64,000 nt of DNA, taken from an uncultured Thermoplasmata archaeon. Its GTDB lineage: Archaea; Thermoplasmatota; Thermoplasmata; Halarchaeoplasmatales; Halarchaeoplasmataceae. The stretch lies in the NCBI GenBank assembly GCA_964458595.1, contig CAYWJQ010000006.1:69776-133775 (forward strand), given 5' to 3'. The position numbers and the translations under genes were made by a program. Each line of letters opens with the position of its first letter. The stretch's first letter is position 1. Positions 94-61,894 of this stretch are shown here, piece after piece. Below the pieces are notes generated by a model. That model did not search any database. It saw nothing but the letters and a program-made list of their open reading frames with translations, and was not told the DNA's origin.

Positions 94-1752
94 TCACATC
101 CCGATAAGTCCCCCCATCACCGATCGAGCGATTATCGAAGCGATTACTCCTATCCAAGTCATCCCTACCGTGTGATACAGTACCGACATTTTGTGGCTCC
201 CAGCAGATAGGACCAAAGAAAGAGAGGCGAAGATAGCGTGAATAAGTATAGCAACGAGGACAAATAATTGTATCATATAAGGACTGTACTGGACCTGGTG
301 CAGTACACCGGAAAATTCCGAGGTTTGAGAGATCATCCCTATAGAATCGTTCATCATGACGGCTATATTTAAGGTCAAAGTAAGAGTCAGAGCAGCGCCT
401 AATCCTAATCCATAAAAAATACCTATCATGCTGGAGGCCTGCTGGTACCTATCTTTTCTCAATGAAAGTATCCTTACAAAAGTTTCTGAGATAATGTCAC
501 TCACTTCACGAACATCTGCACCTAGATCAGTGGATCCAGTATAGATATTAGTAAAAGTTGCTATAAGATTACTTCCGGTTCCTGAGGCGAAAAACCTCCA
601 AGCTCTTTCTTCATCGATCCTCGTAAGTAGTCTTTTATACAATTTTTCTATTTCCTCCGTTAATGGTCCAAAATCGTACTGTCTCAGTTTTTCTAGTGCG
701 TTCTCGACACTCCCGCCTTTCATAGCTATACTGCTCGCTATAGCTCTCATGAACGCGTCGTAGTTATTGTCGGATCTCTTCAATTTTTTCTCCGAGAAAT
801 ATATCATCAAACCGGGCGCGATCAACGGAGATAGGGAAACTGCTACTGTCCAAAATATATCTATACTTATATAATTGAAAAATACGTAAAAGAGGATAAC
901 ACCCCCTACCACACACGCTGGGATCACTTTTTTCAGTTTATCCGTTAGAGGCGGTCTTTTATCCAGCTGATGCCATATCGGATCGTTCGGCATGACCGTT
1001 TTTACGGCTACGGCCATTATTATTTCCATTATTATGAAAACTACAAGACCACCAGTAAGAAGTAGCATCGCTGAATTACCACTGAATATGGGAAGTATAC
1101 TCAAGAATACGAGTAGAAATAGTGTAGAAGTCATAAGAGCGATGAAGACTTCTTTCATCAAATCGAGAGTTTCTAGGGAAGATTTATACTCAGTTTCATA
1201 ATCTTTCAAAACTACGGAATGCTCTTTTTTAAGGAAAGTAGTCATGTTTTCCCCTGCTTCCTGAGAGTGAGCGAGACGAGTTAAAAAATCTGATAATCGT
1301 TCACTAGGCGTTTCTTCAGCCACATCTCTAGCCGCTTCAGGAAGGGGCATGTCCCAGTATTCCATCCTACTGTAAACCTTTTTGAGCTCATCAGCTAGAG
1401 ATCCATATTCGTCTACTTCAGAAAGCTTTTTTATCATCCTAGATTCCGATACTGCGGAAGTTGACAATGCCCAAAAGTAGGTGATCAACAGATGAAGGTA
1501 GGAATCTATTTCTTCCTCTTTTAATTTTCTTATTATTATCGGAAAGATTATAGCCAAAATGAGGATCACTGTTGGAAGGACATATTGAGTGAAATAAACT
1601 AGAAAACCTTCGAGAAGGATGCTAGGAAATATGAGTTGGGGAAAGAAAATTATAAGTATAAATATAGCTACGGCTGGGATCACACCGCCTAAGATGTAAT
1701 CCCTAAAGGACATCTCCATCTTCTTGTAATGTTCCAATATCTCTATGTCCAT
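94..1752 (-). CDS. flaJ: Archaellum assembly membrane protein ArlJ/FlaJ (TadC/GspF-like)
   Basis: 552-aa ORF with clusters of hydrophobic TM segments separated by soluble regions; terminal gene of a co-directional flaF-G-H-I-J block, 14 bp after flaI. Confidence 0.85.
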   Translation of the reverse strand: MDIEILEHYKKMEMSFRDYILGGVIPAVAIFILIIFFPQLIFPSILLEGFLVYFTQYVLPTVILILAIIFPIIIRKLKEEEIDSYLHLLITYFWALSTSAVSESRMIKKLSEVDEYGSLADELKKVYSRMEYWDMPLPEAARDVAEETPSERLSDFLTRLAHSQEAGENMTTFLKKEHSVVLKDYETEYKSSLETLDLMKEVFIALMTSTLFLLVFLSILPIFSGNSAMLLLTGGLVVFIIMEIIMAVAVKTVMPNDPIWHQLDKRPPLTDKLKKVIPACVVGGVILFYVFFNYISIDIFWTVAVSLSPLIAPGLMIYFSEKKLKRSDNNYDAFMRAIASSIAMKGGSVENALEKLRQYDFGPLTEEIEKLYKRLLTRIDEERAWRFFASGTGSNLIATFTNIYTGSTDLGADVREVSDIISETFVRILSLRKDRYQQASSMIGIFYGLGLGAALTLTLTLNIAVMMNDSIGMISQTSEFSGVLHQVQYSPYMIQLFVLVAILIHAIFASLSLVLSAGSHKMSVLYHTVGMTWIGVIASIIARSVMGGLIGM

Positions 1753-1766
1753 ATTATCTTAGCCTT

Positions 1767-3416
1767 TTATTTGATGCTAACTTGGGAGTCTTTTACTCTC
1801 AGGCGCGGTGGAAGAGATTCCATACCGCCTCTATGCCACTTTCTTAACACTTCTATGACTTCATCATAACCTAATATATCCTCTCTGATCATGTTTTTGA
1901 TGATCTGGGCTCTTTTTTCCAGCTCTAGATATATATCTCTTTTTTCGTCAAACCCCATCCTGGGGGCTATCTTTTCCTCCAAAACTTGGCTGTTGAATTT
2001 TCCTCTAAAGTCAAAACTGTCACTGACTGGGTCCCATCCAAATATCTCTCGGACTTCTACACTATCTTCTTCCCTCAAATAACCGGTAATTTCCGTTAAA
2101 GCCAACATCCTTCTTAGGAATTCTCCTCCGACATATACCGCCTGTTGGATGACCACGAAATCAAGGTTGGGGAAAAAGTGTAATGGAACATTGATGGGAT
2201 CTCCACTCATCCTCTGAATAAGTTTATGGACTGAAGCCGCGTGGAATGTGGACATAACCGGAACACCGGTCTGCATCGCTTGGAAAGCGATATTACCTTC
2301 TTCACCTCTGATCTCACCGACCAGTAATGCTTCTGGCCTACTCCTCATAGCGGCCTTTATCAGGTCAAAATATTCGACAGATATCTGCTCGTCTTCTGAT
2401 TCTTTGATTATCATCTGCTGCCATGTTTCTTGAGGAGGCTGAACTTCCGCCGTATCTTCTACGGAGTAAACCTTGTTGTCATGGGGTATGAAGGGCAGCA
2501 TCGAATTCAAAGTAGTGGTTTTACCCGAAGCTGTCTCCCCAGAAACTATGCATGACATGCCTTGTTCCATTGCCAGCCACATGTATGCACCCATCCTCGG
2601 GCTGAATGTATTCCACTTGATTATTTGTGGCATTGTCAGAGGCGTCTCTTCGAACTTTCTGATCGTGAAACTGGGACCTTTTATAGAGATATCTTCTGGA
2701 TATATTATATTTAATCTAGAACCATCTGGCATCGCGGTGTCGAATACGGCGTCCGAAGCGTTCACGTCCACATTTACTCTATCTCCAAGATTCACGAGAT
2801 ATTCGTCCAGTTTCTCCATATTTTCGAACTGGAGGTTAGTAGTCATCTCATCGAATATCTTATGGATGAGTTTGATAGGCTCTAGACCAACCACGTATAT
2901 GTCTTCTATATAAGGATCTCTCATAAGCGGTTCAAGAGGTCCAAGATCGGCTAAATCTCTCATGAGCCTGTATCTAACTCTTCTTACTCTCTCTTTTGGT
3001 ATATCTCGGCTGAACAAAAGCCCGTTAGTTTCTTTTTCCACGAACTCATCTACGGATTCTTCGATAAGATCTTTTAATTTCTCTGGATCGTCTTTTACGT
3101 CTTCGTAAGCTGCTTTTTCAAAGATATAATCCTGTATTTCTTCAAGAAGTTCTCTACTTTCAGTATCTAGTTCAGGTTCTACACCGTTGTATTTGTATCC
3201 ACTACCTTCGGTCCCATAAACGTGGACGAAGATAGGATCACCTATAGGATATATTATATTTATTTCATCTTGATCTTTTAGATCTCTATCAACTCTGTTT
3301 TTCAATACCGGTTCGTCGATGCCTCTACTCTGTAGACCTTTGATATACTCGTTGAGGTGCGAGTTCCTCTTTCTAGCTTGGGCTAATGAACTTTCATGCT
3401 GCTGTACAGGAGACAT
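1767..3416 (-). CDS. flaI: Archaellum ATPase ArlI/FlaI (secretion-type ATPase)
   Basis: Walker A GETASGKTTTLNS, 549 aa, 1-bp gap to flaH; typical FlaI size and context. Confidence 0.9.
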   Translation of the reverse strand: MSPVQQHESSLAQARKRNSHLNEYIKGLQSRGIDEPVLKNRVDRDLKDQDEINIIYPIGDPIFVHVYGTEGSGYKYNGVEPELDTESRELLEEIQDYIFEKAAYEDVKDDPEKLKDLIEESVDEFVEKETNGLLFSRDIPKERVRRVRYRLMRDLADLGPLEPLMRDPYIEDIYVVGLEPIKLIHKIFDEMTTNLQFENMEKLDEYLVNLGDRVNVDVNASDAVFDTAMPDGSRLNIIYPEDISIKGPSFTIRKFEETPLTMPQIIKWNTFSPRMGAYMWLAMEQGMSCIVSGETASGKTTTLNSMLPFIPHDNKVYSVEDTAEVQPPQETWQQMIIKESEDEQISVEYFDLIKAAMRSRPEALLVGEIRGEEGNIAFQAMQTGVPVMSTFHAASVHKLIQRMSGDPINVPLHFFPNLDFVVIQQAVYVGGEFLRRMLALTEITGYLREEDSVEVREIFGWDPVSDSFDFRGKFNSQVLEEKIAPRMGFDEKRDIYLELEKRAQIIKNMIREDILGYDEVIEVLRKWHRGGMESLPPRLRVKDSQVSIK

Positions 3417-3417
3417 C

Positions 3418-4113
3418 TTATCCCACCGAAGTGATTTCTAATACGAAACCGATTCCAGGCTCCACCCTGAATGCGATACTTTGAGAAACACCGCCTCCAG
3501 CTTTAGCAAATCTTTTTACATTTATCTCCTGAGAGACCGTACCTCCGACTTGGTTAAGTTCCATCTCGAAGAGCATATGAGCCGCTGAATAGAACGGAGG
3601 GAACAATTTTTCAGAAGTAGGCCCTGATTCTATATTCAATAACATCGTCTTACCCTGTGCGAGAAGTCTTTGTGTGAAGGTCTCTAGTTTCTGTAAGGAT
3701 TCTTCAGGATTAGAGTCTTTATTCACGAGAGCCGAGAACGTATCTACTATTATGATATCCGATTCGAATATCTTTTCTCCGCTCATGAGTTTTTCCACGT
3801 AATTCGTTGAAGACTCCTGTTGAAGCATTCCGTATATCGGTATGAATAGAAGATCATGGTTCAAGAGATAAGATGTGATTTTATACCCCAAAGAATCCAT
3901 CTGCTCGATAAAACCTTTGACTGTCAACTCAGTAGATATCACTGAAACCTGATAACCATTTTCTAAAAACCCATACGTTAAGCGCTGAGTGAAAACTGAT
4001 TTTCCTGTTCCATACCTACCTTCGACTATCCCAAGGGACGATGAGGGAAAACCTCCTCCGAGCATATCTGAGAGGTCATCTCGGGGTATATCTATCTCTC
4101 TTATCTCTACCAT
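3418..4113 (-). CDS. flaH: Archaellum protein ArlH/FlaH (KaiC/RecA-like)
   Basis: P-loop-like GRYGTGKS, 231 aa, sits between the flaG-like gene and flaI. Confidence 0.85.
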   Translation of the reverse strand: MVEIREIDIPRDDLSDMLGGGFPSSSLGIVEGRYGTGKSVFTQRLTYGFLENGYQVSVISTELTVKGFIEQMDSLGYKITSYLLNHDLLFIPIYGMLQQESSTNYVEKLMSGEKIFESDIIIVDTFSALVNKDSNPEESLQKLETFTQRLLAQGKTMLLNIESGPTSEKLFPPFYSAAHMLFEMELNQVGGTVSQEINVKRFAKAGGGVSQSIAFRVEPGIGFVLEITSVG

Positions 4114-4126
4114 CTATATCACTTTT

Positions 4127-4564
4127 CTATATAGTAAATTCTAAGGTGTCTTCCGATTGATGAGAAGCTACGACTTTTAACCAGTGATCGCCACTTTCTA
4201 ATTTAATATCGATTTTCACCTTTATAACCTCTGTGGGTGACCAGATGTTGTCATCCCCATCCACCAATTGGATAGACGAAGGCTGCTGTAAAGTGCCGTT
4301 GACAAGTATTTCTACATCGGTCTTATTCATGCTGGTCGAACCCGTATTTTTTACATAGACTATCAGAGGGTCATTCGGCATATTGTTTGGATCATTTATT
4401 ATTGATATGTCGCTCTTCAATCTTTCGCTTAACGCGTCTTCTCTTGATCTTATCCCGCTGGAGATCGAATCGGTAGAGGTGATGAAAACACCCGCTAGAG
4501 TCGATGCTACGACCATAGAGGCCAGAAAGAAGACCAGGTGCGAGCTCGATATAGAGAATCCCAT
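4127..4564 (-). CDS. flaG: Archaellum FlaG(ArlG)-like protein
   Basis: 145 aa; N-terminal hydrophobic segment MGFSISSSHLVFFLASMVVASTLAGV then beta-rich domain with KNTGST motif shared with the upstream FlaF-like ORF; F versus G assignment is by operon position only. Confidence 0.6.
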   Translation of the reverse strand: MGFSISSSHLVFFLASMVVASTLAGVFITSTDSISSGIRSREDALSERLKSDISIINDPNNMPNDPLIVYVKNTGSTSMNKTDVEILVNGTLQQPSSIQLVDGDDNIWSPTEVIKVKIDIKLESGDHWLKVVASHQSEDTLEFTI

Positions 4565-4576
4565 ATTTTTTACCTC

Positions 4577-5788
4577 CTAAATTCTTTCATAATCTGTTAT
4601 TCCATTTTCTAGAACTAGCTTTAATTTCGGACCCAAATTGAGTCTGAACCATCCATTCAATCCGTTACCGATGACTAAACTCCCGGCGACATCGATACCT
4701 CCTAATCGACTCCCCAACTCGTCTTCGATCGTCTGCACGAAGTTACCATCGGTATCGAAAACATCTATATGAGATCTAGAGTCGACAACATAAATTCGAG
4801 GTTCTGTAAAGTTTTGATCGCTGACGGTTATATTCGTCGGACTAGAGAGTTTCCCTCCGGAGATCAAATCTGTATGTGTGCTTCCGTTCAGAGCGTATCT
4901 TTCCACGCTATTAGAAGTTTTATTCACTATATAGATATGATCGCTAACATATATGTCGATCGCGCCATCCAGATTTGTTACCGCGGTATCATGATAGCTA
5001 CCATCTAGATTATACCTATCCACATGATCGTTACCGTCTAATACGTAAATATAATCTTGACTATTCTCATCAGTGACTGATATAGCCCTAGGGGAGGTCA
5101 ACTCACCGCCGTTAGCTATAAACTTGACTCCGTTTTTACCTTTAAGGTTAAATTTATCTATATGATTTTGATTATCGATAGCGAAAAGATTGCTGTAATT
5201 AGAAGAAACATCGGTAGCGTTATCCAAAACTCCTCCGTCTATAGTGTTTATCAAGTTATTTTTGTGATCATAAACCGAGATATTACCTCTATCTTCAACA
5301 TTTCCGTCTTCGATCACGTAAGTATAATTAGAATTAGTGCTGATCGGACCCGGGCGTACGATCCCCTTGCTGATTTTAATTTTTATTCTTTCGCTTATAT
5401 TTGATTTGAATTCCAGATCGATATTTTTCAATCTTATCTTTAGATCCTCTTCAGGCGGCCAGTGATATCCTTTACTTTCTAGGAGATCATAGCTAACATT
5501 TTCAGGATCTATTATTTTTCCGTCCAACATCACGTCGCTTTTCGTGGCGTTCAGAACGGTCGATCCAGTGTTTTTGACCTCTATCACAGTTTCATTATTT
5601 GTTCTATTGTAGAGAACGGACTGTATCTTTATATCCGTCTGCTGTCGAGATATCCTTCGTTCTGAACTGTTTTGTATCTGGGTCTCAAAACTTTCCATAC
5701 TGGAATAGAATGCGCCGGACAGGACCGAGAAAGTGACGATCAACGCCACAAATATTATCCCGCTAGAGCCCGCTACTGAGAAGCCCAT
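4577..5788 (-). CDS. flaF: FlaF(ArlF)-like protein with C-terminal NHL-repeat-like beta-propeller
   Basis: N-terminal TM plus KNTGST flagellin-like domain; C-terminal repeats of type SP-x-I-x-V-x-D-x(n)-IYVxD-x-N-x-hxxFxxxG (e.g. LTSPRAISVTDENSQDYIYVLDGNDHVDRYNLDGSY, LSSPTNITVSDQNFTEPRIYVVDSRSHIDVFDTDGNF); 403 aa, much longer than typical FlaF/FlaG. Confidence 0.55.
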   Translation of the reverse strand: MGFSVAGSSGIIFVALIVTFSVLSGAFYSSMESFETQIQNSSERRISRQQTDIKIQSVLYNRTNNETVIEVKNTGSTVLNATKSDVMLDGKIIDPENVSYDLLESKGYHWPPEEDLKIRLKNIDLEFKSNISERIKIKISKGIVRPGPISTNSNYTYVIEDGNVEDRGNISVYDHKNNLINTIDGGVLDNATDVSSNYSNLFAIDNQNHIDKFNLKGKNGVKFIANGGELTSPRAISVTDENSQDYIYVLDGNDHVDRYNLDGSYHDTAVTNLDGAIDIYVSDHIYIVNKTSNSVERYALNGSTHTDLISGGKLSSPTNITVSDQNFTEPRIYVVDSRSHIDVFDTDGNFVQTIEDELGSRLGGIDVAGSLVIGNGLNGWFRLNLGPKLKLVLENGITDYERI

Positions 5789-8700
5789 CTTTCTTTCACC
5801 ACCTCTTCGTCCTTATCTATCGGATGGACATTATCTCCGATGCTTATTTCGCTGCCATCGAACAGGAGTTCTCCACCATATCCGATCTCATCCTCTATAT
5901 GAACATTTTCTGACAATTTCACGTCTCCTCGGCAAGAAACTCTATTCACTTTGGTGTTTTTTTCCAAGATGACTTTTTCCTCCGCTTCTATATCGTTTAC
6001 TTCACTGCCTCTAGAGATCAGCACGGTTTTACCTTCTATTTTTCCACCGACTTTACAATCTTCACCGATATTCACGTCTCCCGATTCCGACGTCACGTCA
6101 TCCTGTATCTCGGTGCCTTCATTGATCTTTATATCACCTTCAGCGCTCAGAGAGCCCTCAACGTTGACATCATTCTCTATCTCGACATCGCTCTCTGATG
6201 CGATATTCCCCGATATCTCGGATTCGGGTTCAAGTTTTATCTCCTCTTCAGAATGGATTGTGCTGGTTTCGTCTTCTTCCGTTTTTTCTTCAGGTTCAGA
6301 AGTTAGATACTCCTCTTGGGTGATCTCTTCTGCCTCTTTTTGGTCTGATTCTTCCGTTTCTTCAGAGAGATCCTCAGAACCTACTTTGGCTTTTATATTC
6401 TCGGGTTCTTCGATCAATTCTTCCTCTTTCTCTACCACTTCCATCACTTCGTCCATCTCTTCTTCTAGATTTTCTTCAGGCTCGGGTCCTTCTTCAGACT
6501 TTTCTATCGAAGGTACCTCTTCTTCTTCGATATCTTCGTCTATTTCTCCAGTTCTTTCACTTGTCTCCTCGCCTGTCTTTTCTTTTATTTCCTCCAGATC
6601 ACCGATATCCTCTTCTCTTATTTCTTCCTCATCAGCTACTTCTCGACTTTCTCTTCCTTCTTTTTTCAAATCCTCTATCTCGTCCTTTAAGGAATCGATC
6701 TCACTCTCTAGATTTTTTATCATGTCCATCAATGTGGATTCTTCTGTTTCCTGTTTTTCTTTCTCTTCTTCGGTAACTTCGGTGATTTCTTCTTCGGGAG
6801 ATACTGCCTCTTCTATCTCTTCACTCTTTTCTTCAGTTTCTGGGAACCGAGGGGTTTTGATTTCCGCTTCTCCAGTTGGTTCCTCCGTTTCCTTTTCTTC
6901 ACTTGGGACTTCTTCAGTTATCTCTTCGGTTTCCTCCTCTACCGTAGTTTCTGGCTCACTTGCTTCCAGTTTTTCTTCTCTCTCGGTCGTTTCGATCTCT
7001 TCGAGAGGCTCGGTTTCCGCCCCTTCTTCTACAGAGACGGTTCCTTCGATTGCCTCTTCTTTTTCTGGCGATTCTCCCTTGATCTCTTTCATATCCTCTC
7101 TTAATCGATCTATCTCTTTCTCTAGATTTCGTATAGCCTCGATGATGGCAGAAGGTTCTTCTTGTGTCTCGTCTCTCTCCTCTTCTATATCTTCTTCTAG
7201 TTCCTTTATATCTTCCAATGTTTCTTTCTCTTCTTCGAAGGTCTCCATCTTTTCCTTTATATCTTTAGCTCTCTCTGGCTCTACGTCCGTTTCTTCTTCC
7301 TCTGTCTCCTTCAATTTTTCTAGCTCTTTTTTCAACATCCTATTCTCTTCTTTTAGTCCCTCAATAGCTTCCATTATCACGGAGGAATCCATAGTATCCG
7401 ATACTTCGGGTATGGTCTTTTCGTTGATCCTTTCGACCTTTTTTTCAAGACTCCTTTCTTGGTCCTCTAAGAATTGCATCATCCTTCTTACCTTGGAAAC
7501 GAGATGTTCTTCTTGTCCTCTCTGAATTCCTTCTCTAGTTTCTTCGGAAAGTTCTTCTTTCTTCTTCACCTCTAGATCCAGCTCACTTTTGATCAAGTCT
7601 ATATTTTCGTCCTCCATATCATCTGGATCGACAACGATCATGAATATGGTGGTCTTCACGGTTATCTGGTCCTGGAGAGATTGGATGAAATGGATGACCG
7701 TCGATTCGGGATTGTTTGAAAGTAGATAACCGATACCGTCTAGAAGGATTATCCCATCGTCTTCTGAGATGAATCTCTCTATCGTCAGTCCAAGTAGATC
7801 CAATTCATCAGGGCCTATAGCGATATCTTCACTAGAAGATGAAAGCCATCCGTATTCTACTCCGGTCATGTCGTACTTTTCTTTCACGTCGTCAGGATGT
7901 TTTCTAAGTAAACACAGCCCTGATCTTTCTTTAACTAGATCTTGGAAAACTTCATATGGGAACTCTTCATCAGATGTTTCTAAAAGGTACATCTTTCCAT
8001 CTTCGAGTTCCTCTAACAGTTTTTCACTAGACAGACCTCCTTCTTTTTCTTCTCCCACTGGACTCTGAGTCATCTCCATTTCTTGAGGTTCCTGCTTAGA
8101 GACTGCGGGTCCCGGCTCTTGGATACTTTTCTGGCTTTTTTCTTCCTGAGCTGGTTGTTGAGTCGGCTGCTGGGGTTCCGCTTCAGTCTTTTTAGGTTCT
8201 TCTACCTGTGTCTGAGACTGTTGGGCGGTCTGTGGTTCTTGGGATGGTTGTTGGAGGGGTGCAGTTTCTTTCTTTTTAGGTTCTTCTACCTGTGTTTGAG
8301 GCTGTTGTGGGGGCTGAGCTTCTTGAGTGGGCTGTTCAGGCTGAGTCTCAGGCTCCTGTGGCTCTGGAGTTTCCGGTTGCTCTGGTTCTGGGGAAGGTGG
8401 TTGTTCTTCCTGTTGTTCTGACGCCCCTTCCATCGGAGGTTCCGGACCTTCTCCACCCTCCGGACCTCCGATATCGGGCATCTCGGGAGATTCTTCAGGT
8501 TCCTCTTCCTCTGGAGGTTCTACGAGTTCATCGAGAGGGGATTCTTCGGAAGTTTCTTCACTCTCTTCTTCGGAAGAACCACCGAAATCCATGCTGTCCC
8601 AATCCTCTTCTTCGCCGCCTCCGGAGCCGCCCTCTCCGCTGCTTAGACCTCCACCCTCTTCGAGGAAGGGGTTGAATTCGGCCGTTACCATCTCATAAAC

Positions 8701-9045
8701 GTCCAATAACTGACTGATATCTTCTTCAAGATCGTTTACTCTTTCTTCGATATCGTCGACCGTGTCGTTCATCGTCTCTACTTTGTTTTCTACTTCACGT
8801 ATATCGTCTCGATTTCTATCTATATCGTCTCTAACATCGGGTGCTACACCCATACCTCCACCTTCTCCTCCCTGTGGTCCGATACCTTCATCTTCATCCA
8901 TATCGGCACCCATCGGACCCATTCCGCCCTCTTCTTCGTCTGCATCTATAATATCATCTATATCGCCTTCCGATCCTTCTTCGGCTTCGTTTTCTTCTTC
9001 TTCTTCCTCGTCATCTTTTCCTAACAACTTTCCGAAGTCTACCAT
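5773..9045 (-). CDS. Giant acidic mosaic protein in the FlaC/D/E position (coiled coil, P/Q/E-rich linker, DUF835-like domain, E/K-rich coiled coil, C-terminal beta-helix-like repeats)
   Basis: 1090-aa ORF overlapping flaF-like start by 16 bp; N-terminal motif YEMVTAEFNPF; central domain KMYLLETSDEEF...ILLDGIGYLLSNNPESTVIHFIQSLQDQ homologous to the C-terminus of the 26209-30207 ORF; C-terminal alternating V/I-x-G/D repeats. FlaC/D/E relationship is inferred from position. Confidence 0.6.
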   Translation of the reverse strand: MVDFGKLLGKDDEEEEEENEAEEGSEGDIDDIIDADEEEGGMGPMGADMDEDEGIGPQGGEGGGMGVAPDVRDDIDRNRDDIREVENKVETMNDTVDDIEERVNDLEEDISQLLDVYEMVTAEFNPFLEEGGGLSSGEGGSGGGEEEDWDSMDFGGSSEEESEETSEESPLDELVEPPEEEEPEESPEMPDIGGPEGGEGPEPPMEGASEQQEEQPPSPEPEQPETPEPQEPETQPEQPTQEAQPPQQPQTQVEEPKKKETAPLQQPSQEPQTAQQSQTQVEEPKKTEAEPQQPTQQPAQEEKSQKSIQEPGPAVSKQEPQEMEMTQSPVGEEKEGGLSSEKLLEELEDGKMYLLETSDEEFPYEVFQDLVKERSGLCLLRKHPDDVKEKYDMTGVEYGWLSSSSEDIAIGPDELDLLGLTIERFISEDDGIILLDGIGYLLSNNPESTVIHFIQSLQDQITVKTTIFMIVVDPDDMEDENIDLIKSELDLEVKKKEELSEETREGIQRGQEEHLVSKVRRMMQFLEDQERSLEKKVERINEKTIPEVSDTMDSSVIMEAIEGLKEENRMLKKELEKLKETEEEETDVEPERAKDIKEKMETFEEEKETLEDIKELEEDIEEERDETQEEPSAIIEAIRNLEKEIDRLREDMKEIKGESPEKEEAIEGTVSVEEGAETEPLEEIETTEREEKLEASEPETTVEEETEEITEEVPSEEKETEEPTGEAEIKTPRFPETEEKSEEIEEAVSPEEEITEVTEEEKEKQETEESTLMDMIKNLESEIDSLKDEIEDLKKEGRESREVADEEEIREEDIGDLEEIKEKTGEETSERTGEIDEDIEEEEVPSIEKSEEGPEPEENLEEEMDEVMEVVEKEEELIEEPENIKAKVGSEDLSEETEESDQKEAEEITQEEYLTSEPEEKTEEDETSTIHSEEEIKLEPESEISGNIASESDVEIENDVNVEGSLSAEGDIKINEGTEIQDDVTSESGDVNIGEDCKVGGKIEGKTVLISRGSEVNDIEAEEKVILEKNTKVNRVSCRGDVKLSENVHIEDEIGYGGELLFDGSEISIGDNVHPIDKDEEVVKERWASQ
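7570..8000 (-). other. DUF835-like domain inside the giant archaellum-operon protein
   Basis: About 140-aa segment with strong similarity to the C-terminal domain of the IleRS-like ORF (shared LL..G.EYL / IQS.KDQ pattern); family name recalled from memory, needs HMM confirmation. Confidence 0.5.
8186..8310. repeat. Two-copy tandem repeat (about 83-bp period) inside the giant gene, encoding repeated QVEEPKK...PQQP peptide
   Basis: tttttaggttcttctacctgtgt(c/t)tgag(a/g)ctgttg occurs at about 8190 and again at about 8273. Confidence 0.7.
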
Positions 9046-9107: not shown

Positions 9108-9785
9108 TCATTTCAGATTCACCTTCCTCGAAGTGTAAACTGAAGGAGTAGTGAAGGAGATCTGAGTGGATTGACCCGTCTGAGGGATGAGTTTGATATC
9201 TACGGGCGTATTTGGTTCGAGATCGAGACCTATTGCATTAGCGTCGATGTAAATCTTTACCAAGGTGCCCTGTTCCATCACATTGGATTCGGCATAAACA
9301 CCTTCAGGATCTCTCAGTACCTCGGTCGTAAAATTATCTTTATCCGCTCCGGTCGGATCATCGACAGTTGAGTTGTGAAGTAGCTCGCCTGTCGCGTTTC
9401 CATCGTCTATTATTATTACAACATCGTCCATATCTAAAGGTCCACTTCCCGCCTGAAGACGGACTATTATCTCTACAACCTGTATATTTTTCTTCGTTGG
9501 ATTACTTGATTTTCCGTTTTTCTTTCTATCTCCTACGACCGATAGCGTATTCATACCGGTGCTCACCTCTGAAAGAGCTTGATCGGCTGTACTTTCCGAT
9601 TGATTCTGAAGTTTTGTCACCGTGTCAACTAAGACTCCAGCGACGATCGCCGTTATCAGTATGGTAGCTATCAACAGCATCAGTGAACTTACCCCAGTAG
9701 ACCCGGAGTCGTCTTTAGATAGACGGGTCTCTCTGTACGGGGAGGACTCTTGAAATAACTCAGTCTCTCTTAAGTCCTTAAGCAT
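9108..9785 (-). CDS. Divergent archaellin-like protein (class III signal peptide), first gene of the minus-strand accessory operon
   Basis: Hydrophobic N-terminal helix SGSTGVSSLMLLIATILITAIVAGVLVDTVTKLQ and C-terminal IKLIPQTG..TTPSVYTSRKV resembling the archaellin C-terminus [27 protein letters not shown]; long N-terminal extension, so start is uncertain. Confidence 0.7.
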   Translation of the reverse strand: MLKDLRETELFQESSPYRETRLSKDDSGSTGVSSLMLLIATILITAIVAGVLVDTVTKLQNQSESTADQALSEVSTGMNTLSVVGDRKKNGKSSNPTKKNIQVVEIIVRLQAGSGPLDMDDVVIIIDDGNATGELLHNSTVDDPTGADKDNFTTEVLRDPEGVYAESNVMEQGTLVKIYIDANAIGLDLEPNTPVDIKLIPQTGQSTQISFTTPSVYTSRKVNLK

Positions 9786-10053
9786 TATGATAAACAGGTC
9801 CGATTATCATATTATATTTAATGTCGTGATTATCTCTAGAGATAATAGCCTTCAGAAGTAAAAAAGATCGATAAGCTTATCTGAACGACTATATTAATGT
9901 CTTGATAAAATATAAGTATTTACACGATGTTATTAGAGCTGATAATAAGATCTGTTTTTCTAAAAAGATAAACCTATCTTATAAACGGAGTTGATTCTCT
10001 GTAGAAATAACCTTCTTATATAATTGATATTTGAAAACTTTTAGGATAATTGC

Positions 10054-10074
10054 TTCCGAATTTATATAATCGAT
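10054..10074 (+). promoter_or_regulatory. BRE/TATA-like promoter element of archaellin 1
   Basis: ttccgaatttatataatcgat about 50 nt upstream of ATG 10119; the same element recurs before archaellins 2, 3 and 5; aggaga SD-like motif about 7 nt before the start. Confidence 0.6.
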
Positions 10075-10118
10075 TAGGGTGGTGATTAAACTAGAGTATC
10101 CGAAAGGAGATAGTAAAG

Positions 10119-10727
10119 ATGAAAAAACTAAAACGAAAAGATGAAGAAGGGGCGATGGGCGTTGGGACGCTCATCATATTCATAGCCATGGTTCTAGTCT
10201 CGGCAGTGGCGGCCAGTGTACTCATCGACACAGCTAATAAGCTCCAACAGCAGGCAGAGAAAACTGGTGATCAGGCGATAAGAGAAGTCTCTACATCATT
10301 CATTGTAAAGGGTATTTTTGGATACGATGCCTCGAGTGGAGATGAAAGTCCAAATGAGATAGGGAACATATCTTTAAAAGTAGGTTTGGCAGCAGGTGCC
10401 CCTGCACAAAATCTTAATCAGACAGTGATCCAGATTACCAATGATACTAGTGAAGAGAATTTAGTAGCAGCAGGTGATAGTAGTACATCGGCAAATGGTG
10501 CTCATTATTCCTGGAATCCGATAATAGAACAACAGGGAAATGATAATCAGTATGTAGAACAAGGGGATCTTTATAATGTAACGATAAATATGAATAAGGC
10601 CTTAGGTGGACCAGTAGGAACACAGGCAGAAATATCCATTCAGATAATACCCAAGCACGGGACACCAACCTACGAAAAGGTGACAACGCCGCCCGTGATG
10701 ACTTCAAAAATTGTCGATCTCACCTAG
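10119..10727 (+). CDS. flaB: Archaellin (FlaB/ArlB family) 1
   Basis: Class III signal peptide [43 protein letters not shown]; conserved C-terminus [29 protein letters not shown]. Confidence 0.9.
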
Positions 10728-10737
10728 ATCTATCACT

Positions 10738-10765
10738 TAAAAACCTTTATTTTTTCATTTATCTG
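10738..10765 (+). terminator. T-rich terminator-like element after archaellin 1
   Basis: aaaaacctttattttttcatttatc directly after the stop; similar motif follows each archaellin transcription unit. Confidence 0.45.
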
Positions 10766-10914
10766 ATCTTGAAAAAATTTGTTTTCATCTTCACCCTAAA
10801 GTCTTATTGGTCTTGATAATAGAACAAAAAAATAGGCTTTGGTAAACAGAGTTTATTCTATAATTATGGAACAACTCTTAGTAATTAGAATTTAAAAATT
10901 AAAAGGATAATTTC

Positions 10915-10935
10915 TTCCGAATTTATATAATCGAT
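10915..10935 (+). promoter_or_regulatory. BRE/TATA-like promoter element of archaellin 2
   Basis: ttccgaatttatataatcgat, identical to the element at 10054. Confidence 0.6.
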
Positions 10936-10975
10936 AAGGGAGGTGATTAAGATAGTAAAAAGAAAGGAGGATACA

Positions 10976-11575
10976 ATGGCAGGAACAAAACGATTAAAAC
11001 GAAAAGATGAAGAAGGCGCGATGGGCGTAGGAACGCTCATCATATTCATAGCCATGGTTCTAGTGTCGGCTGTGGCGGCCAGTGTACTTATCGATACCGC
11101 TAATAAGCTCCAACAGCAGGCAGAGAAAACAGGCGATCAGGCGATCCGAGAAGTGGCGACCTCGTTTATAGTGAAGGATGTTATAGGATACAATGGAAAA
11201 GACGGTGAGATAGGAAATATATCTTTGAAAGTGGGCCTAGCGGCCGGAGCGCCCGCTCAGTCCTTGAACCAGACGGTTATACAGGTTCAGACCGATTCGA
11301 ATCAGGCGCATCTTACGGCTGCGGCTCAAGGATATGGTCCTGGATCTAACAATTATTCATGGCGAGAGGTCATCGAACAGGAAGATACTTTCAACCAGTA
11401 CTTAGAACAAGGAGATATAGTGAATATAACGATAAATCTGTATGAGATGTTCGGTAAAACAGTCGGGACTCAAAGCGAGATCTCCATCCAGATAATACCA
11501 AAGCATGGGACGCCAACCTATGAAGAGATAACGACGCCGCCCGTGATGGTAAGCAAGATCGTCGAGTTCACCTGA
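10976..11575 (+). CDS. flaB: Archaellin (FlaB/ArlB family) 2
   Basis: Same conserved N- and C-termini as archaellin 1; start placed at ATG 10976 (GGAGG 7 nt upstream) rather than the GTG at 10943 in the ORF track, which lies almost inside the promoter element. Confidence 0.88.
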
Positions 11576-11586
11576 GGATAGATACA

Positions 11587-11615
11587 GAAAACCTTTCCCT
11601 CTTTTCATTATTATA
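11587..11615 (+). terminator. T-rich terminator-like element after archaellin 2
   Basis: aaaacctttccctcttttcattattat. Confidence 0.45.
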
Positions 11616-11697
11616 TTGCACACGTGCGTGAAGATTGGTTATATTTTTCTATTTTTTCAAAATTGATAATCAGGGATGAATAATCAGAGAAATAATC

Positions 11698-11721
11698 GTT
11701 TCCTAATTTATATAGTGAATA
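11698..11721 (+). promoter_or_regulatory. BRE/TATA-like promoter element of the archaellin 3-4 pair
   Basis: cgtttcctaatttatatagtgaat, followed by conserved leader atcatgctgtatccgagaggagataaaacatg. Confidence 0.6.
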
Positions 11722-11762
11722 AGAGAGGTGATTATCATGCTGTATCCGAGAGGAGATAAAAC

Positions 11763-12401
11763 ATGAGAAGGATAAAACGAGAAGACGAAAAAGGAGCGAT
11801 GGGCGTAGGAACGCTCATCGTATTCATCGCAATGGTACTGGTAGCCGCGGTAGCGGCCAGTGTACTTATCGACACAGCGAACAAGCTACAGCAGCAGGCA
11901 GAGCAAACAGGTGATCAAGCGATCAGGGAAGTATCGACCGCATTCCAAGTACACGATGTATTTGGATATAATGCTGCTGGTGACAATAAGATAGAGAATC
12001 TAACGCTTAAAGTAGGTTTAGCGGCAGGAGCGCCAAGTCAAGACCTGAATCAAACTGTAGTTCAGGTTTCAGGTCCTTCTAGCGAAGCGAATCTACTAGC
12101 AGTAGATAGCGACAATTATGATCTTGGCGAAGGAGCAGATAGTGATTCGTATGCGATAGACAATATAATCGAGCAAGAAGATGGTGGATCTGTAGAGTTT
12201 TCAGATGTCCGCTATTTAGAACAAGGAGATCTAGTGAACATAACGATAGCTATAGATGAAACTTCAGTAGGTGGGCCAGGCACTGGGATAGGTCCTCAAA
12301 CAGATCTATCGATCCAGATAATGCCGAAGCACGGCACGCCGACCTACGAGGAAATAACCACACCACCAGTGATGACAACGAAGATAGTTGATTTAAACTA
12401 A
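11763..12401 (+). CDS. flaB: Archaellin (FlaB/ArlB family) 3
   Basis: [61 protein letters not shown]; variable middle; conserved C-terminus. Confidence 0.9.
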
Positions 12402-12410
12402 GGTGATAAC

Positions 12411-13022
12411 ATGAGAAGGATAAAAAGAGAAGATGAAAAAGGAGCGATGGGCGTAGGAACGCTCATCGTATTCATCGCGATGGTGCTAGTAGCTGCGGTA
12501 GCAGCTAGCGTTTTGATCGATACCGCGAACAAGTTACAGCAGCAGGCAGAACAGACAGGAGATCAAGCGATCAGGGAAGTATCCACCGCTTTTACCGTTA
12601 AAGACGTCTATGGAGTAGACGGAGGAACTTATGGTGATGAAAACGGCAAGATAGACACGTTATACATGAAGATAGGCCTAGCGGCAGGAGCTCCTGCTCA
12701 GGACATGGACCAGACGATCATACAGCTGAAAAATGATACTGCAGAAGCAAATCTACAGAACGGAAGTAGTGCAGGATCTTCTGATTATACAATAGACCAG
12801 GTCATCGAACAAAGTGATCCTGAAGATGGTTACTTAGAACAGGGTGACATCCTCGAGATAGAAATAGATGTCACTTCAGCACTAGATGATGGATCGGCTA
12901 CCGTTGGATTAGGTCCACAGGAAGATGTTTCCATACAGATAATACCGAAGCACGGTACACCTACCTACGAACAGATCACCACGCCGCCTACGATAATTAA
13001 CACCCATGTAGACCTAGGTTAG
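12411..13022 (+). CDS. flaB: Archaellin (FlaB/ArlB family) 4
   Basis: N-terminal 60 residues identical to archaellin 3; 9-bp intergenic spacer (ggtgataac), so co-transcribed with archaellin 3. Confidence 0.9.
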   Translation: MRRIKREDEKGAMGVGTLIVFIAMVLVAAVAASVLIDTANKLQQQAEQTGDQAIREVSTAFTVKDVYGVDGGTYGDENGKIDTLYMKIGLAAGAPAQDMDQTIIQLKNDTAEANLQNGSSAGSSDYTIDQVIEQSDPEDGYLEQGDILEIEIDVTSALDDGSATVGLGPQEDVSIQIIPKHGTPTYEQITTPPTIINTHVDLG

Positions 13023-13029
13023 ATGCGAT

Positions 13030-13075
13030 GAAAAACCCTTTCCCTATTATTATTTTTAATTCTTTTTTAATTTAA
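13030..13075 (+). terminator. T-rich terminator-like element after archaellin 4
   Basis: gaaaaaccctttccctattattatttttaattcttttttaattt; near-identical to the element after archaellin 6. Confidence 0.5.
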
Positions 13076-13125
13076 CTCCTCTATTTTCAAAATAACTCCT
13101 CCTCTCTGTTATCGTTGTAGATAAT

Positions 13126-13149
13126 CGTTTCCGAATTTATATAGTGAAT
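13126..13149 (+). promoter_or_regulatory. BRE/TATA-like promoter element of the archaellin 5-6 pair
   Basis: cgtttccgaatttatatagtgaat plus a leader identical to that of archaellin 3. Confidence 0.6.
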
Positions 13150-13191
13150 AGGAAAGATGATTATCATGCTGTATCCGAAAGGAGATAAAAC

Positions 13192-13800
13192 ATGAGAAGG
13201 ATAAAAAGAGAAGACGAAAAAGGAGCGATGGGCGTTGGGACGCTCATCGTGTTCATCGCGATGGTACTGGTAGCCGCAGTAGCGGCTAGTGTACTGATAG
13301 ATACAGCGAACAAGTTACAGCAGCAGGCAGAACAGACAGGAGATCAAGCGATCAGAGAAGTTTCGACCGCATTCCAGGTGCAGGACGTGTTTGGTTATGA
13401 CGCCTCTAGTGGGGGCTTAGAGAATATAACATTGAAGGTAGGCTTAGCAGCAGGTGCACCAGCACAAGATCTGAATCAAACGGTGATACAGATATCTGGA
13501 CCAAGTAATGAAGATAACTTGATCGCACCCCATAACAGCAGTGACTATGCAGATGGTGGTAACTATTATATCAGAGGCATAATCGAACAGGAAGGTGACA
13601 CAGGTACATTCTCAGATGTCCGGTATTTAGAGCAGGGAGATCTTGTTAATATAACAATATCTCTCACTGATAGTGATATAAGTAGTCCAGTAAGCACCCA
13701 GACGGATTTGTCGATCCAGATAATGCCGAAGTACGGAACGCCGACCTATGAAGAGATCACCACGCCGCCAGTGATGACATCGAAGATAGTAGATCTATGA
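13192..13800 (+). CDS. flaB: Archaellin (FlaB/ArlB family) 5
   Basis: Conserved archaellin N- and C-termini. Confidence 0.9.
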
Positions 13801-13813
13801 CAAAGGTGATAAC

Positions 13814-14398
13814 ATGAGAAGGATAAAAAGAGAAGACGAAAAAGGCGCGATGGGCGTGGGAACGCTCATCGTATTTATCGCCATGGTACTGGTAGCCGCG
13901 GTAGCGGCCAGTGTACTGATCGACACAGCGAACAAGTTACAGCAGCAGGCAGAACAGACAGGAGATCAAGCGATCAGAGAAGTTTCGACCTCGTTCACAG
14001 TTAAAGATGCCTACGGACAAGACAACGATGATGATGGCCTGATAGAGGATGTTGTTTTAAAGATAGGATTGGCTGCAGGTGCTCCTGCACAGAACTTAGG
14101 TCAAACGATGCTTCAGCTAAAAAATGATACGGCTGAAACTAACGTTAAAGTCACGAGTACCTCTTACAGTAAAGTGATCGAACAGGATTCTGATGGTCAA
14201 ATAGATTATTTGGAACAGGGAGATATAGTGAAAGTTGAAGTTACAGGTATCGGTACTGCTAGTTATTTCGATACTGGGAATGGTCTTGGTACTCAGCAGG
14301 ATCTTTCCATCCAGATAATACCGAAGCACGGCACGCCGACTTACGAGCAGATAACAACACCACCTACGATAGTAGATCAACACGTAGATCTTACCTAA
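13814..14398 (+). CDS. flaB: Archaellin (FlaB/ArlB family) 6
   Basis: Conserved archaellin N- and C-termini; 13-bp spacer to archaellin 5. Confidence 0.9.
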   Translation: MRRIKREDEKGAMGVGTLIVFIAMVLVAAVAASVLIDTANKLQQQAEQTGDQAIREVSTSFTVKDAYGQDNDDDGLIEDVVLKIGLAAGAPAQNLGQTMLQLKNDTAETNVKVTSTSYSKVIEQDSDGQIDYLEQGDIVKVEVTGIGTASYFDTGNGLGTQQDLSIQIIPKHGTPTYEQITTPPTIVDQHVDLT

Positions 14399-14404
14399 AA
14401 GCGA

Positions 14405-14447
14405 TGAAAAACACCTTTCCCTATTATTATTTTTTAATTCTTTTGAA
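14405..14447 (+). terminator. T-rich terminator-like element after archaellin 6
   Basis: gaaaaacacctttccctattattattttttaattctttt. Confidence 0.5.
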
Positions 14448-14599
14448 TAATGAATCATTTTTGAAGATAAAAGATCTTTTAAAATATTTTGATTATTAGG
14501 CTTCAAAATCATAAGCGAGATAAGATTTCACAATTATTCTAACTGATAATAATCGTCAAAGCTTTATGAATTTCTAGCTAGATAAGTAATGCGTTCTTA

Positions 14600-14662
14600 G
14601 AACAACCCGTTTCCTATTCAAAATGAATATAGGAGAGGTAAACCCCCTAGTGATAAAACATG
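14600..14662 (+). other. Degenerate copy of the archaellin promoter/leader with no archaellin coding sequence downstream
   Basis: ccgtttcctattcaaaatgaatataggagaggtaaaccccctagtgataaaacatg aligns with cgtttcctaatttatatagtgaataagagaggtgatta...gataaaacatg, but the TATA box is disrupted and the following ORF (14660-14869) has no archaellin motifs. Confidence 0.5.
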
Positions 14663-15630
14663 TCCCTAGGTTCCGGGGAATTTACCTCTCTTTTCATCCT
14701 GAACCGGCCCATTTTCTTAGAGCCCTTCAACTTTTCTTTTGATCTCCTGCTCATTTCCGGCGACAAAGAATGTAATCCCTTCCATATCTCTGTTCTTATT
14801 GCAGCACATTATATTCAAACTATCCTTCCAGAACTATATCTGGGCAACAGTGAGATCGGAATCATCTAGTATGAATTTTGATGTACCACAGCACTTCCTC
14901 TGTTCCTTTTGAAATTATCCATCTCAAATTTAAAATCTACTATCTCTTCCGACATCTCTCTCATCTCATCCGGATAATATTCCCCCTGATCCTGGCTATC
15001 AGGTATTATATCCTCAAAACTTTCATTTCCCTCTTTTTCAGCTACCAGCCTATCTTAAACGACTTCACTGCCTTCAATGTTACTCAAAGACGGCAATATT
15101 ACATGAGGAAATAAGTCGTCTTGGAATCTTTTTAATTTTCTTATATTTTTGAAAATAATAATAAGTTAAACCTTAAAGATAGAAAAAACATAAGTTATCC
15201 ATCTACCATTTTAAACATTCAAAATCAAATAAGATCTTTATAGAAAAAATCGAACTCTAAAATAAAAAAAATTTTTTAATTCCGTATGGAAGAATTTTTT
15301 CATTTTCCTTCAAAAACTACTCAATGAAAATTTAATCTAAAATAAAGATGTTTTTCCTCTAATCAACTGGTTTTAGTATATATGAGATCGTTATCGGTTG
15401 CTCGAAATGATGAGTTTTTCTTTCTTTAGTAATCAAGGATGATTATTATAGAGAATAAATCTACTGCGATGTTTTCATCCTTGGTAATCAACCATCTCAA
15501 AAAACATTGATAAATAAACCATATAATCGTATTCAATGATGATTTTCAATGATGATAATTCGAGTGTTTTATCAAGATTGATACCACTTTCGAAATTACT
15601 ATTTATATCGATAATGATATTTCATAACGA

Positions 15631-15655
15631 GAACAGGAATTGATTGCGCCTGTTC
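15631..15655 (+). promoter_or_regulatory. Inverted repeat upstream of the seventh archaellin
   Basis: gaacagg-(11 nt)-cctgttc, about 40 nt upstream of ATG 15696 and just downstream of an A/T-rich tttatat box at about 15602. Confidence 0.3.
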
Positions 15656-15695
15656 GTAATCGCCCTTTATCGGGTGTCTAAGAGGCGGATAGTTT

Positions 15696-35357: not shown

Positions 35358-35682
35358 CTATATCCTCCCACATCTTCGAGACATCTAGCGTTCCGTATTC
35401 TTTGTAAAGATAGAGTATGAGAGCCAGACCGAGCGCGGTAGTTGCAAGACTCACTACGATCGAGGTGAGCATAAAAGTGTGGGGCAGGGGATCGACCATC
35501 TTTCCCCCTCTACCTATTATCGGTACAGAACCACCGGGGGCATAGGCGACCGAGACGAATAAAAGGATAACTCCCGAGTTGACAACGGTTAAAGACATAA
35601 GGATCTTGACGGCATTCCTGTTATTCGTCAATCCGTAAAGACCTAAGAAGATCGTCAGTAATCCTATGTGGATCCCGTTCAT
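35350..35682 (-). CDS. mrpC: Mrp antiporter subunit C (NuoK-like)
   Basis: MNGIHIGLLTIFLGLYGLTNNRNAVKILMSLTVVNSG; start trimmed to the internal Met because the 5' extension in the ORF track overlaps mrpB. Confidence 0.7.
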   Translation of the reverse strand: MNGIHIGLLTIFLGLYGLTNNRNAVKILMSLTVVNSGVILLFVSVAYAPGGSVPIIGRGGKMVDPLPHTFMLTSIVVSLATTALGLALILYLYKEYGTLDVSKMWEDIDD

Positions 35683-61658: not shown

Positions 61659-61684
61659 ATGGTAAAAATCATAAGGTGAAATGA

Positions 61685-61870: not shown

Positions 61871-61894
61871 TAAATAATAAACACCATCACGTTT

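Follow-up and report, generated by a model that had tools for sequence, protein, structure and literature searches.

DUF835, an inactivated KaiC domain, in an archaellum-operon protein and an isoleucyl-tRNA synthetase-like protein of an uncultured Thermoplasmata archaeon

Introduction

Two large and otherwise unrelated proteins encoded on one stretch of archaeal DNA share a segment of about 140 residues, which raises the questions of what this segment is and whether it connects the two proteins functionally. The stretch, hereafter the window, comprises 64,000 nucleotides of contig CAYWJQ010000006.1 (assembly GCA_964458595.1, positions 69,776 to 133,775) from an uncultured member of the Thermoplasmata of the order Halarchaeoplasmatales. 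The first of the two proteins, here termed the giant protein, is encoded in an archaellum operon, and the second resembles isoleucyl-tRNA synthetase (IleRS). A first-pass annotation made from the sequence alone had noticed the segment, had named DUF835 and the archaeal FlaD/E domain as candidate families and had considered it a possible tie between the synthetase-like protein and the archaellum/chemotaxis apparatus or a shared scaffold. As described below, the segment belongs to DUF835, and the best explanation as a whole is probably that of an inactivated KaiC docking domain residing in two separate old fusion families, with no specific link between them.

Identity of the shared segment

The postulated homology of the two segments is substantiated by BLASTP with compositional adjustment, which aligns copy 1 of the giant protein and copy 2 of the IleRS-like protein with 57 identities over 155 positions (37%) and 63% positives at E 3e-36. 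Copy 1 corresponds to nucleotides 7564–7992, close to the interval 7570–8000 originally given, and the quoted peptides are present in both open reading frames (ORFs). The DUF835 profile (PF05763) scores 86.6 bits (E 1.6e-24) on residues 359–489 of the giant protein and 107.5 bits (E 5.8e-31) on residues 1196–1325 of the IleRS-like protein, far above its gathering cut-off of 33.1 bits for the whole-protein score, and both matches span almost the entire 136-position profile. The candidate family DUF835 is thereby confirmed. The alternative assignment to the FlaD/E family is ruled out, as the Pfam scan returned FlaC_arch, DUF835 and Bactofilin for the giant protein but never Arch_fla_DE (PF04659), for which neither DUF835 host protein gave a match at E ≤ 0.01. 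When the window, translated in six frames, was searched with a profile built from the two copies, a third copy was not detected (next best match, E 0.59), and a sequence search of the PDB with DUF835 yielded only spurious short matches to designed SAKe proteins.

The first-pass annotation had also pointed out that a long acidic low-complexity linker precedes each copy, which holds for both proteins (Table 1). Aspartate and glutamate together account for 34% and 23% of the residues of the two host proteins, which contain long glutamate-rich stretches, and the DUF835 similarity might accordingly be a by-product of acidic, low-complexity or coiled-coil composition, a case foreseen in that annotation. 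However, the E value of 3e-36 came from a composition-adjusted comparison, the Pfam scores amount to about three times the cut-off, the AlphaFold2 models of both copies are confident and globular with an α/β architecture, and the invariant positions common to both copies include the non-acidic residues Arg, Pro, Trp, Leu and Asn. Composition as the source of the similarity is thus refuted by BLASTP, Pfam and AlphaFold2, and its residual probability is negligible. Part of the linker acidity is a trait of the organism, because most window proteins checked (9 of 11) likewise have isoelectric points of 4.4–5.5; the acidity of the window proteins fits a salt-in halophile.

Fold and motif loss of DUF835

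AlphaFold2 models, each built from a 51-sequence alignment, reached a mean pLDDT of 95.5 and a pTM of 0.91 for copy 1, and of 93.0 and 0.89 for copy 2. Both copies are modelled as alternating strands and helices in a RecA-type fold, so that the α/β core characteristic of the KaiC/RecA superfamily is present in the predicted structures. Fold comparison lists Twinkle, Rad51/DMC1 with their paralogues and Elp4/5/6 among the structural neighbours, and ArlH is the closest characterised structural relative among the proteins encoded in the window. Alignment of the DUF835 profile with 18 ArlH proteins by hhalign gave a probability of 94.3% and an E value of 1e-7, pairing DUF835 residues 15–150 with ArlH residues 40–184 and beginning after the Walker A loop; the same profile weakly detects ArlH proteins in unrelated archaellum loci (E 1e-8 to 1e-4). 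PH0284 and KaiC match DUF835 as well as ArlH does, and the similarity of the fold therefore concerns the KaiC family and not ArlH specifically.

Compared with ArlH/FlaH (PDB 4yds, 4wia), an autophosphorylating protein (review PMC8978795) of about 230 residues with an intact Walker A motif, DUF835 is shorter (about 140 residues) and lacks the Walker A segment, a conserved glutamate and the C-terminal part. The loop following strand 1 reads YLIEEEGTEES and YLLETSDEEF in the two window copies and deviates from the Walker A pattern GxxxxGK[ST], the GK[ST] element being missing from 158 of the 164 DUF835 domains compared. Across these domains, the position equivalent to E62 of ArlH varies (E 28, Q 22, N 19, D 18, others) and the Walker-B-like position is Asp in 106, copy 1 included, and Asn in copy 2. 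One Arg, one Pro, one Trp and one Asn are nearly invariant in the alignment. DUF835 is hence a shortened KaiC/ArlH-type RecA fold of about 140 residues that has lost the Walker A loop and does not conserve the residue in the position of the catalytic glutamate; it thus represents an inactivated KaiC domain, whose motifs predict neither canonical binding nor canonical hydrolysis of ATP.

The family itself is already known. DUF835 has been listed as iKaiC in archaeal response regulators of the types REC-DUF835 and REC-PAS-PAS-DUF835 (Galperin et al. 2018, PMC5847659, citing Makarova et al. 2017). The two window segments clearly belong to this family, and the iKaiC label is in keeping with both their fold and their lost motifs; the known hosts, however, are response regulators, whereas those in the window are an ArlC-bactofilin protein and an IleRS or pseudo-IleRS. 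The work of Makarova and colleagues is reportedly the primary description of iKaiC, and its title is said to propose KaiC-type networks as archaeal signalling hubs.

Because of the fold and the motif loss we infer that DUF835 is most likely a non-catalytic module that docks or oligomerises via RecA-like subunit interfaces, possibly towards KaiC-family ATPases. Elp4/5/6 and the Rad51 paralogues are RecA-fold pseudo-ATPases forming hetero-oligomers, and Elp456 binds tRNA; their likeness to DUF835 is found at the level of the fold only (5–16% identity). An archaeal homologue of Elp3 (radical SAM and GNAT domains), the eukaryotic counterpart of which partners Elp4/5/6, is encoded in the window at 40673–42211 on the minus strand. 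Alternatively, DUF835 might serve not for protein docking but as a sensor or output domain with a remodelled pocket for a small molecule or nucleotide. Such a function would suit the strict conservation of Arg, Pro, Trp and Asn, the mostly conserved Walker-B-like Asp and the frequent combination of DUF835 with REC, PAS, V4R and 7TM sensor modules, which was observed in our own scan and in PMC5847659. Nevertheless, a P-loop is missing from DUF835, Asn stands in the position of the Walker-B-like Asp in the window copy of the IleRS type, and no ligand is known for any DUF835 protein. We consider a sensory pocket unlikely and retain docking or oligomerisation as the preferred function.

The giant archaellum-operon protein

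The archaellum genes, assigned by the Pfam families T2SSF, T2SSE, KaiC and Arch_flagellin, follow each other in the order arlJ, arlI, arlH, arlG, arlF, giant gene and archaellin-like gene (Table 1). The giant gene, which overlaps the start of arlF by 16 nucleotides, occupies the slot of ArlC/D/E, and both its FlaC_arch domain and its position upstream of arlF/G/H/I/J are those of an ArlC gene. In euryarchaeal archaella, ArlC/D/E are likewise located between the archaellins and arlF/G and carry an N-terminal FlaC_arch domain. However, the giant protein has no Arch_fla_DE domain, which was also not found in the other archaellum-operon proteins scanned with Pfam, and instead combines DUF835 with a long acidic stretch, probably a coiled coil, and a bactofilin-like domain. 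The coiled coil is probable for residues 495–930, and weak coiled-coil-type Pfam matches occur in the equivalent region of the orthologues, for which the bactofilin profile (PF04519) gives scores of 20.4–49.5 bits. Tandem repeats as the cause of the size of the gene were ruled out, since a single weak repeat of 24 nucleotides was found.

Neither a word-indexed protein search with copy 1 (no match at E ≤ 0.001) nor a first metagenome scan with copy 1 revealed relatives, whereas exhaustive phmmer retrieved 1863 representatives at E ≤ 0.001, ten of them at E ≤ 1e-30. Nine of the ten best representatives were scanned with Pfam, and all consist of FlaC, DUF835 and Bactofilin (771–842 residues) or of DUF835 and Bactofilin. 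The orthologues P0053, P0055 and P0056 share both the architecture, FlaC_arch included, and the operon position of the giant protein. Four loci (L162, L163, L164 and L165) are archaellum operons with the gene order of the window, and two more (L167, L168) contain truncated giant-type genes cut by contig ends within such operons. Complete genes without FlaC, coding for DUF835-bactofilin proteins of 526 and 574 residues, are situated between pepF and thiI in L166 and L169, and no archaellum genes were found at these two loci; L169 otherwise has the gene order of the window (pepF, eIF5A, agmatinase, FtsZ, oxidoreductase, IleRS-like gene). Consequently, DUF835-coiled coil-bactofilin is maintained as a unit also where the locus has no archaellum cluster, and FlaC correlates with the cluster. 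In 80 other, metagenomic archaellum loci fetched with ArlI, no relatives of the FlaC, DUF835, coiled-coil and bactofilin parts of the giant protein were found; the DUF835 profile weakly matches ArlH alone, and one of these loci (L095) carries a plain FlaC protein, which the closest locus with flanks (L083) lacks. The only close ArlI relative (L082, 86% identity) lies on a contig of 2.2 kb.

The gene arlH follows about 1.7 kb downstream in the operon of the giant gene, and copy 1 of DUF835 might act as a pseudo-ArlH that slots into the ArlH ring beneath ArlI, or stacks on it, and takes the place of ArlD/E in ArlH binding. The profile matches to ArlH described above and the lack of Arch_fla_DE in the scanned operon proteins are consistent with this proposal, as is the report that ArlCDE contacts the archaellum motor via ArlH (PMC8978795). 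However, PH0284 and KaiC match equally well, and the complete FlaC-less genes in L166 and L169, at loci without arlH or any other archaellum gene, indicate a role of DUF835 that does not need ArlH at hand. A dedicated ArlH-docking domain was downgraded after these genes had been found, and we regard the pseudo-ArlH proposal as rather unlikely.

In the scenario proposed here for the giant protein as a scaffold component rather than a pseudo-ArlH, the segment from DUF835 through the coiled coil to the bactofilin domain would polymerise through its bactofilin end into a cytoplasmic scaffold, and the FlaC domain would be the likely adaptor that fastens it to the ArlH/ArlI motor. The relatives with no archaellum cluster at this locus keep this segment and lack FlaC. 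Little is known about the cytoplasmic side of the euryarchaeal archaellum, whose polar cap is of unknown composition (PMC8978795); the scaffold is possibly related to this cap. A tentative idea is that a polar-cap-type scaffold in the cytoplasm is built by the ArlC-iKaiC-bactofilin protein alone; we assign it a low, though not marginal, probability. By joining a putative adaptor (FlaC) to an ArlH-like pseudo-ATPase domain and a polymerisation domain of the bactofilin type, the protein in the ArlCDE slot offers a testable candidate for a motor-anchoring scaffold, known so far only from uncultured halophilic Thermoplasmata.

The IleRS-like protein

The second host protein shares with isoleucyl-tRNA synthetases the full-length IleRS fold including the anticodon-binding and C-terminal domains, but fails the equivalog cut-off of TIGR00392 (621.4 bits) and lacks the HIGH, KMSKS and editing motifs. 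It reaches 314.5 bits and the related L002 protein 340.3 bits, while the cut-off is passed by the proteins of L054 (969.7 bits), L001 (951.9 bits) and L036 (742.9 bits); the class I profile PF00133 gives 88 bits compared with 425 bits for the IleRS of L001. In place of HIGH stands the sequence ELSWDELYGN, a deletion has removed the KMSKS loop, and the motifs GxDxHGLP and EGxDQxRGWF are also lost. The editing (CP1) motifs WTTTPWT and GTGxVHxAPGHG are gone as well, their sites reading VEIKDLWKLP and GTGIEFLVPPYE. The loss of the HIGH, KMSKS, GxDxHGLP, EGxDQxRGWF and editing motifs is shared by 19 relatives (L002–L012, L014–L020 and L040), which are 33–62% identical to the window protein in the IleRS part. 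Retained are the anticodon-binding, IleRS C-terminal and helix-hairpin-helix (HhH) domains, the last of which resembles the N-terminal domain of RadA (weak NCBIfam matches to RadA positions 8–78). A class I synthetase without HIGH and KMSKS cannot activate isoleucine. On the strength of these motifs the IleRS part is a pseudo-synthetase, catalytically dead in the halophilic lineage, and as the fusion is dead an active IleRS is presumably encoded separately, elsewhere in the genome.

In species-representative genomes, an alignment of DUF835 used as query detected 248 relatives. The best 80 of these 248, which were examined, all derive from metagenome-assembled genomes of Thermoplasmatota except for one labelled Aenigmatarchaeota. 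The closest relatives of copy 2 belong to Thermoplasmata, the best named one being Ca. Saliniplasma of the order Ca. Halarchaeoplasmatales, and an assignment of the window to Methanosarcinales is rejected on account of these relatives. IleRS and DUF835 are joined in one open frame of approximately 1300–2900 residues in 75 of the 75 loci with upstream DNA, Methanomassiliicoccales included; the remaining five of the 80 are cut by a contig end and hence stand outside this count. Most fusions keep DGPPYTTGxIHxGTAWNK, with HxGT, as well as MSKS, and thus look like active IleRS with a C-terminal HhH-DUF835 module.

A few loci deviate from this picture. The locus labelled Candidatus Aenigmatarchaeota (L003) shows 72% identity in its DUF835 domain and 45% in its IleRS part, and its ranking neighbours are all Thermoplasmata; the label is likely a binning or labelling error. 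On the metagenomic contig L001 (positions 1412–5364), an IleRS of 1030 residues with intact motifs and an HhH-DUF835 protein of 270 residues are encoded in separate frames overlapping by 243 nucleotides, which reflects either a genuine split of the gene or a frameshift error. A second set with degenerate HIGH and KMSKS motifs (L022, L023, L026, L027, L036, L039, L042, L048, L056 and L076) comprises proteins of 1677–2929 residues with large inserts between IleRS and DUF835, at least L036 still passing the IleRS equivalog cut-off; these proteins may reflect independent drift towards pseudo-enzymes.

What, then, is the pseudo-IleRS for? One lineage keeps the fusion after the death of the enzyme, and the non-catalytic function therefore appears to be under selection on its own. 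The protein is probably retained for a non-aminoacylating role, in which binding of tRNA or other nucleic acid would be coupled to the iKaiC end; the arrangement of HhH and RecA-like domains recalls RadA. The HisRS-like domain of GCN2, a pseudo-enzyme related to aminoacyl-tRNA synthetases, offers a parallel inasmuch as the window protein likewise looks like a synthetase scaffold kept without catalysis, although the partner in GCN2 is a kinase while the pseudo-IleRS is fused to HhH and iKaiC. The occurrence of IleRS-HhH-iKaiC across Thermoplasmatota suggests an unrecognised link of a housekeeping synthetase to KaiC-type networks. The searchable literature yielded no description of IleRS-HhH-DUF835 fusions, of the pseudo-enzyme derived from them or of FlaC-DUF835-bactofilin in the ArlCDE slot, and both host architectures thus appear undescribed there.

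Relation between the two copies

A neighbour-joining tree computed from 164 DUF835 domains places the 12 giant-type domains and three others in one clade, while the smallest clade with all 40 IleRS-type domains (plus 26 others) contains no giant-type domain. The copies are 63–64% and 79% identical to their own orthologues but only 35–37% identical to each other. In 102 further DUF835 proteins, the partners comprise HisKA_7TM (14), PAS (11), DUF7504 (11), HHH_5 (7), V4R (5) and REC (4), together with several zinc ribbons and AAA/HerA-type modules. According to these architectures DUF835 is a promiscuous adaptor domain, and tree and identities place the two window copies in separate fusion families, both old, rather than deriving them from a recent exchange. 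As the domain is promiscuous and the families are separate, the shared DUF835 does not support a functional link; it is the reuse of a common archaeal adaptor domain.

The gene context conforms to this conclusion. The IleRS-like gene is surrounded by genes for FtsZ, a pyridine-nucleotide disulphide oxidoreductase, ketopantoate reductase and a MiaB-like enzyme, a housekeeping context without a link to motility. The genes between the two host genes are unrelated housekeeping genes on both strands, so that the giant and the IleRS-like gene do not form one operon. No che genes were found in the 64-kb window, and the only signalling gene found there encodes a hybrid sensor kinase of 1211 residues (46335–49970, minus strand) with an N-terminal REC, about six PAS and HisKA/HATPase domains. 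With the fusion present in all 75 informative genomes, the copies in separate subfamilies, DUF835 attached to many unrelated partners and unrelated genes in between, the tie of the synthetase-like protein to archaellum or chemotaxis envisaged in the first-pass annotation finds no support.

A more specific version of this tie would be that both DUF835 domains bind one partner or co-assemble in a RecA-like ring and thereby recruit the IleRS-like protein to the archaellum/bactofilin scaffold. The two domains are of one family, and the two proteins are conserved in one lineage with their genes in the same neighbourhood, about 17 kb apart in the window and about 6 kb in L169; a pseudo-IleRS-DUF835 gene (L017) and a giant-type operon (L163) also occur together on one contig of 87.6 kb. 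Yet the IleRS-DUF835 fusion is found throughout the informative Thermoplasmatota genomes, Methanomassiliicoccales included, and is present in L169, where archaellum genes do not flank the site; the separate clades, the low mutual identity, the many unrelated partners and the intervening housekeeping genes likewise speak against a common assembly, which we judge improbable. A generic biochemical role shared by the copies, namely docking or oligomerisation via a RecA-like interface, remains plausible. The boldest proposal, built by analogy with the HisRS-like domain of GCN2, is that the pseudo-IleRS-HhH-DUF835 protein is a tRNA(Ile)-binding sensor, the iKaiC end of which plugs into a KaiC-type assembly shared with the DUF835 of the ArlC-bactofilin scaffold. 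If true, a polar-cap-like structure organising the archaellum motors would receive direct information on amino-acid or tRNA-charging status. We regard this proposal as very improbable, clearly more so than its weaker version in which the ArlC-iKaiC-bactofilin protein alone builds the scaffold.

The explanation by an inactivated KaiC docking domain in two separate old fusion families, without a specific link, is the one that we consider probable. Several points weigh against it or against its parts. The docking role derives only from fold and motif loss, and the invariant Arg, Pro, Trp and Asn could line a ligand pocket instead. The bactofilin match of the window protein only just clears its cut-off (28.1 versus 27.9 bits), and the FlaC-less genes of L166 and L169 were seen at those loci only, so that these genomes may have archaella elsewhere. 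Finally, the second, active IleRS is deduced, the sequence at hand being the 64-kb window. For annotation in general, the locus counsels caution, as a common promiscuous domain is not evidence of a functional link. Its interest rests on the candidate motor-scaffold protein and the retained pseudo-synthetase, and less on the shared domain itself.

Archaellum genes and further features of the window

Table 1. Positions in the window of the archaellum genes, the two DUF835 host genes and their domains
Feature	Position	Strand	Basis and properties
arlJ	94–1752	-	Pfam
arlI	1767–3416	-	Pfam
arlH, active KaiC-like protein with Walker A GTGKS	3418–4113	-	PF06745 KaiC, E 2.5e-13
arlG	4127–4564	-	Pfam
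arlF	4577–5788	-	Pfam
Giant gene, FlaC-DUF835-coiled coil-bactofilin	5773–9045	-	1090 aa; ORF list, translation, Pfam
Bactofilin-like C-terminal domain, residues 956–1046	5908–6180	-	PF04519, 28.1 bits, cut-off 27.9
Very acidic stretch, probably coiled coil, residues 495–930 (~440 aa)	6256–7563	-	E 36%, K 9%
DUF835 copy 1, residues 352–494	7564–7992	-	PF05763
E/P/Q-rich low-complexity linker, residues 128–345 (218 aa)	8011–8664	-	E 26%, P 16%, Q 14%
FlaC_arch (ArlC-like) domain, residues 81–127	8665–8805	-	PF05377, 40.1 bits, cut-off 27.8, E 4.9e-10
Pseudo-IleRS-HhH-DUF835 gene	26209–30207	+	1332 aa; ORF list, Pfam, TIGR00392
Degenerate class I catalytic and editing core, residues 16–590	26254–27978	+	PF00133, 88 bits; motif alignments
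Anticodon-binding domain (residues 669–815) and IleRS C-terminal DUF5915 (834–1031)	28213–29301	+	PF08264, 89.2 bits; PF19302, 56.8 bits
HhH domain, residues 1042–1095	29332–29493	+	PF14520, 33.6 bits
Glutamate-rich linker, residues 1098–1185 (88 aa)	29500–29763	+	E 50%, D+E 52%
DUF835 copy 2, residues 1189–1332	29773–30204	+	PF05763

Adjacent to the operon, eight archaellin-type genes are found at 9108–16319, one on the minus strand (9108–9785) and seven on the plus strand, of which six diverge from the operon and the seventh lies further along. The archaellin genes at 11763, 12411, 13192 and 13814 encode an identical N-terminal stretch of about 58 residues, which suggests recent duplication or gene conversion. 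ArlF is unusually long with 403 residues, the archaellin fold being matched only by the N-terminal 140; this form is kept in L163 and L164, and different extensions occur elsewhere, e.g. Laminin_G_3 in L095. A second gene for a T2SSE-type ATPase directly follows arlJ in L163 (18000–19610), L167 (7375–8536) and L168 (7127–8755). The window ends just past arlJ, that is before the position of this gene in the relatives.

Outside the two main loci, a Mrp/Mbh-type multisubunit cation/proton antiporter cluster (Proton_antipo_M, Oxidored_q2, MbhE and MNHE) is located at 33708–37795 on the minus strand. At 56250–63184 on the plus strand, an RHS/YD-repeat protein of 1802 residues (DUF6531 and at least 10 RHS repeats) is followed by an RHS fragment of 403 residues, an arrangement which looks like a polymorphic-toxin-like locus in an archaeon.

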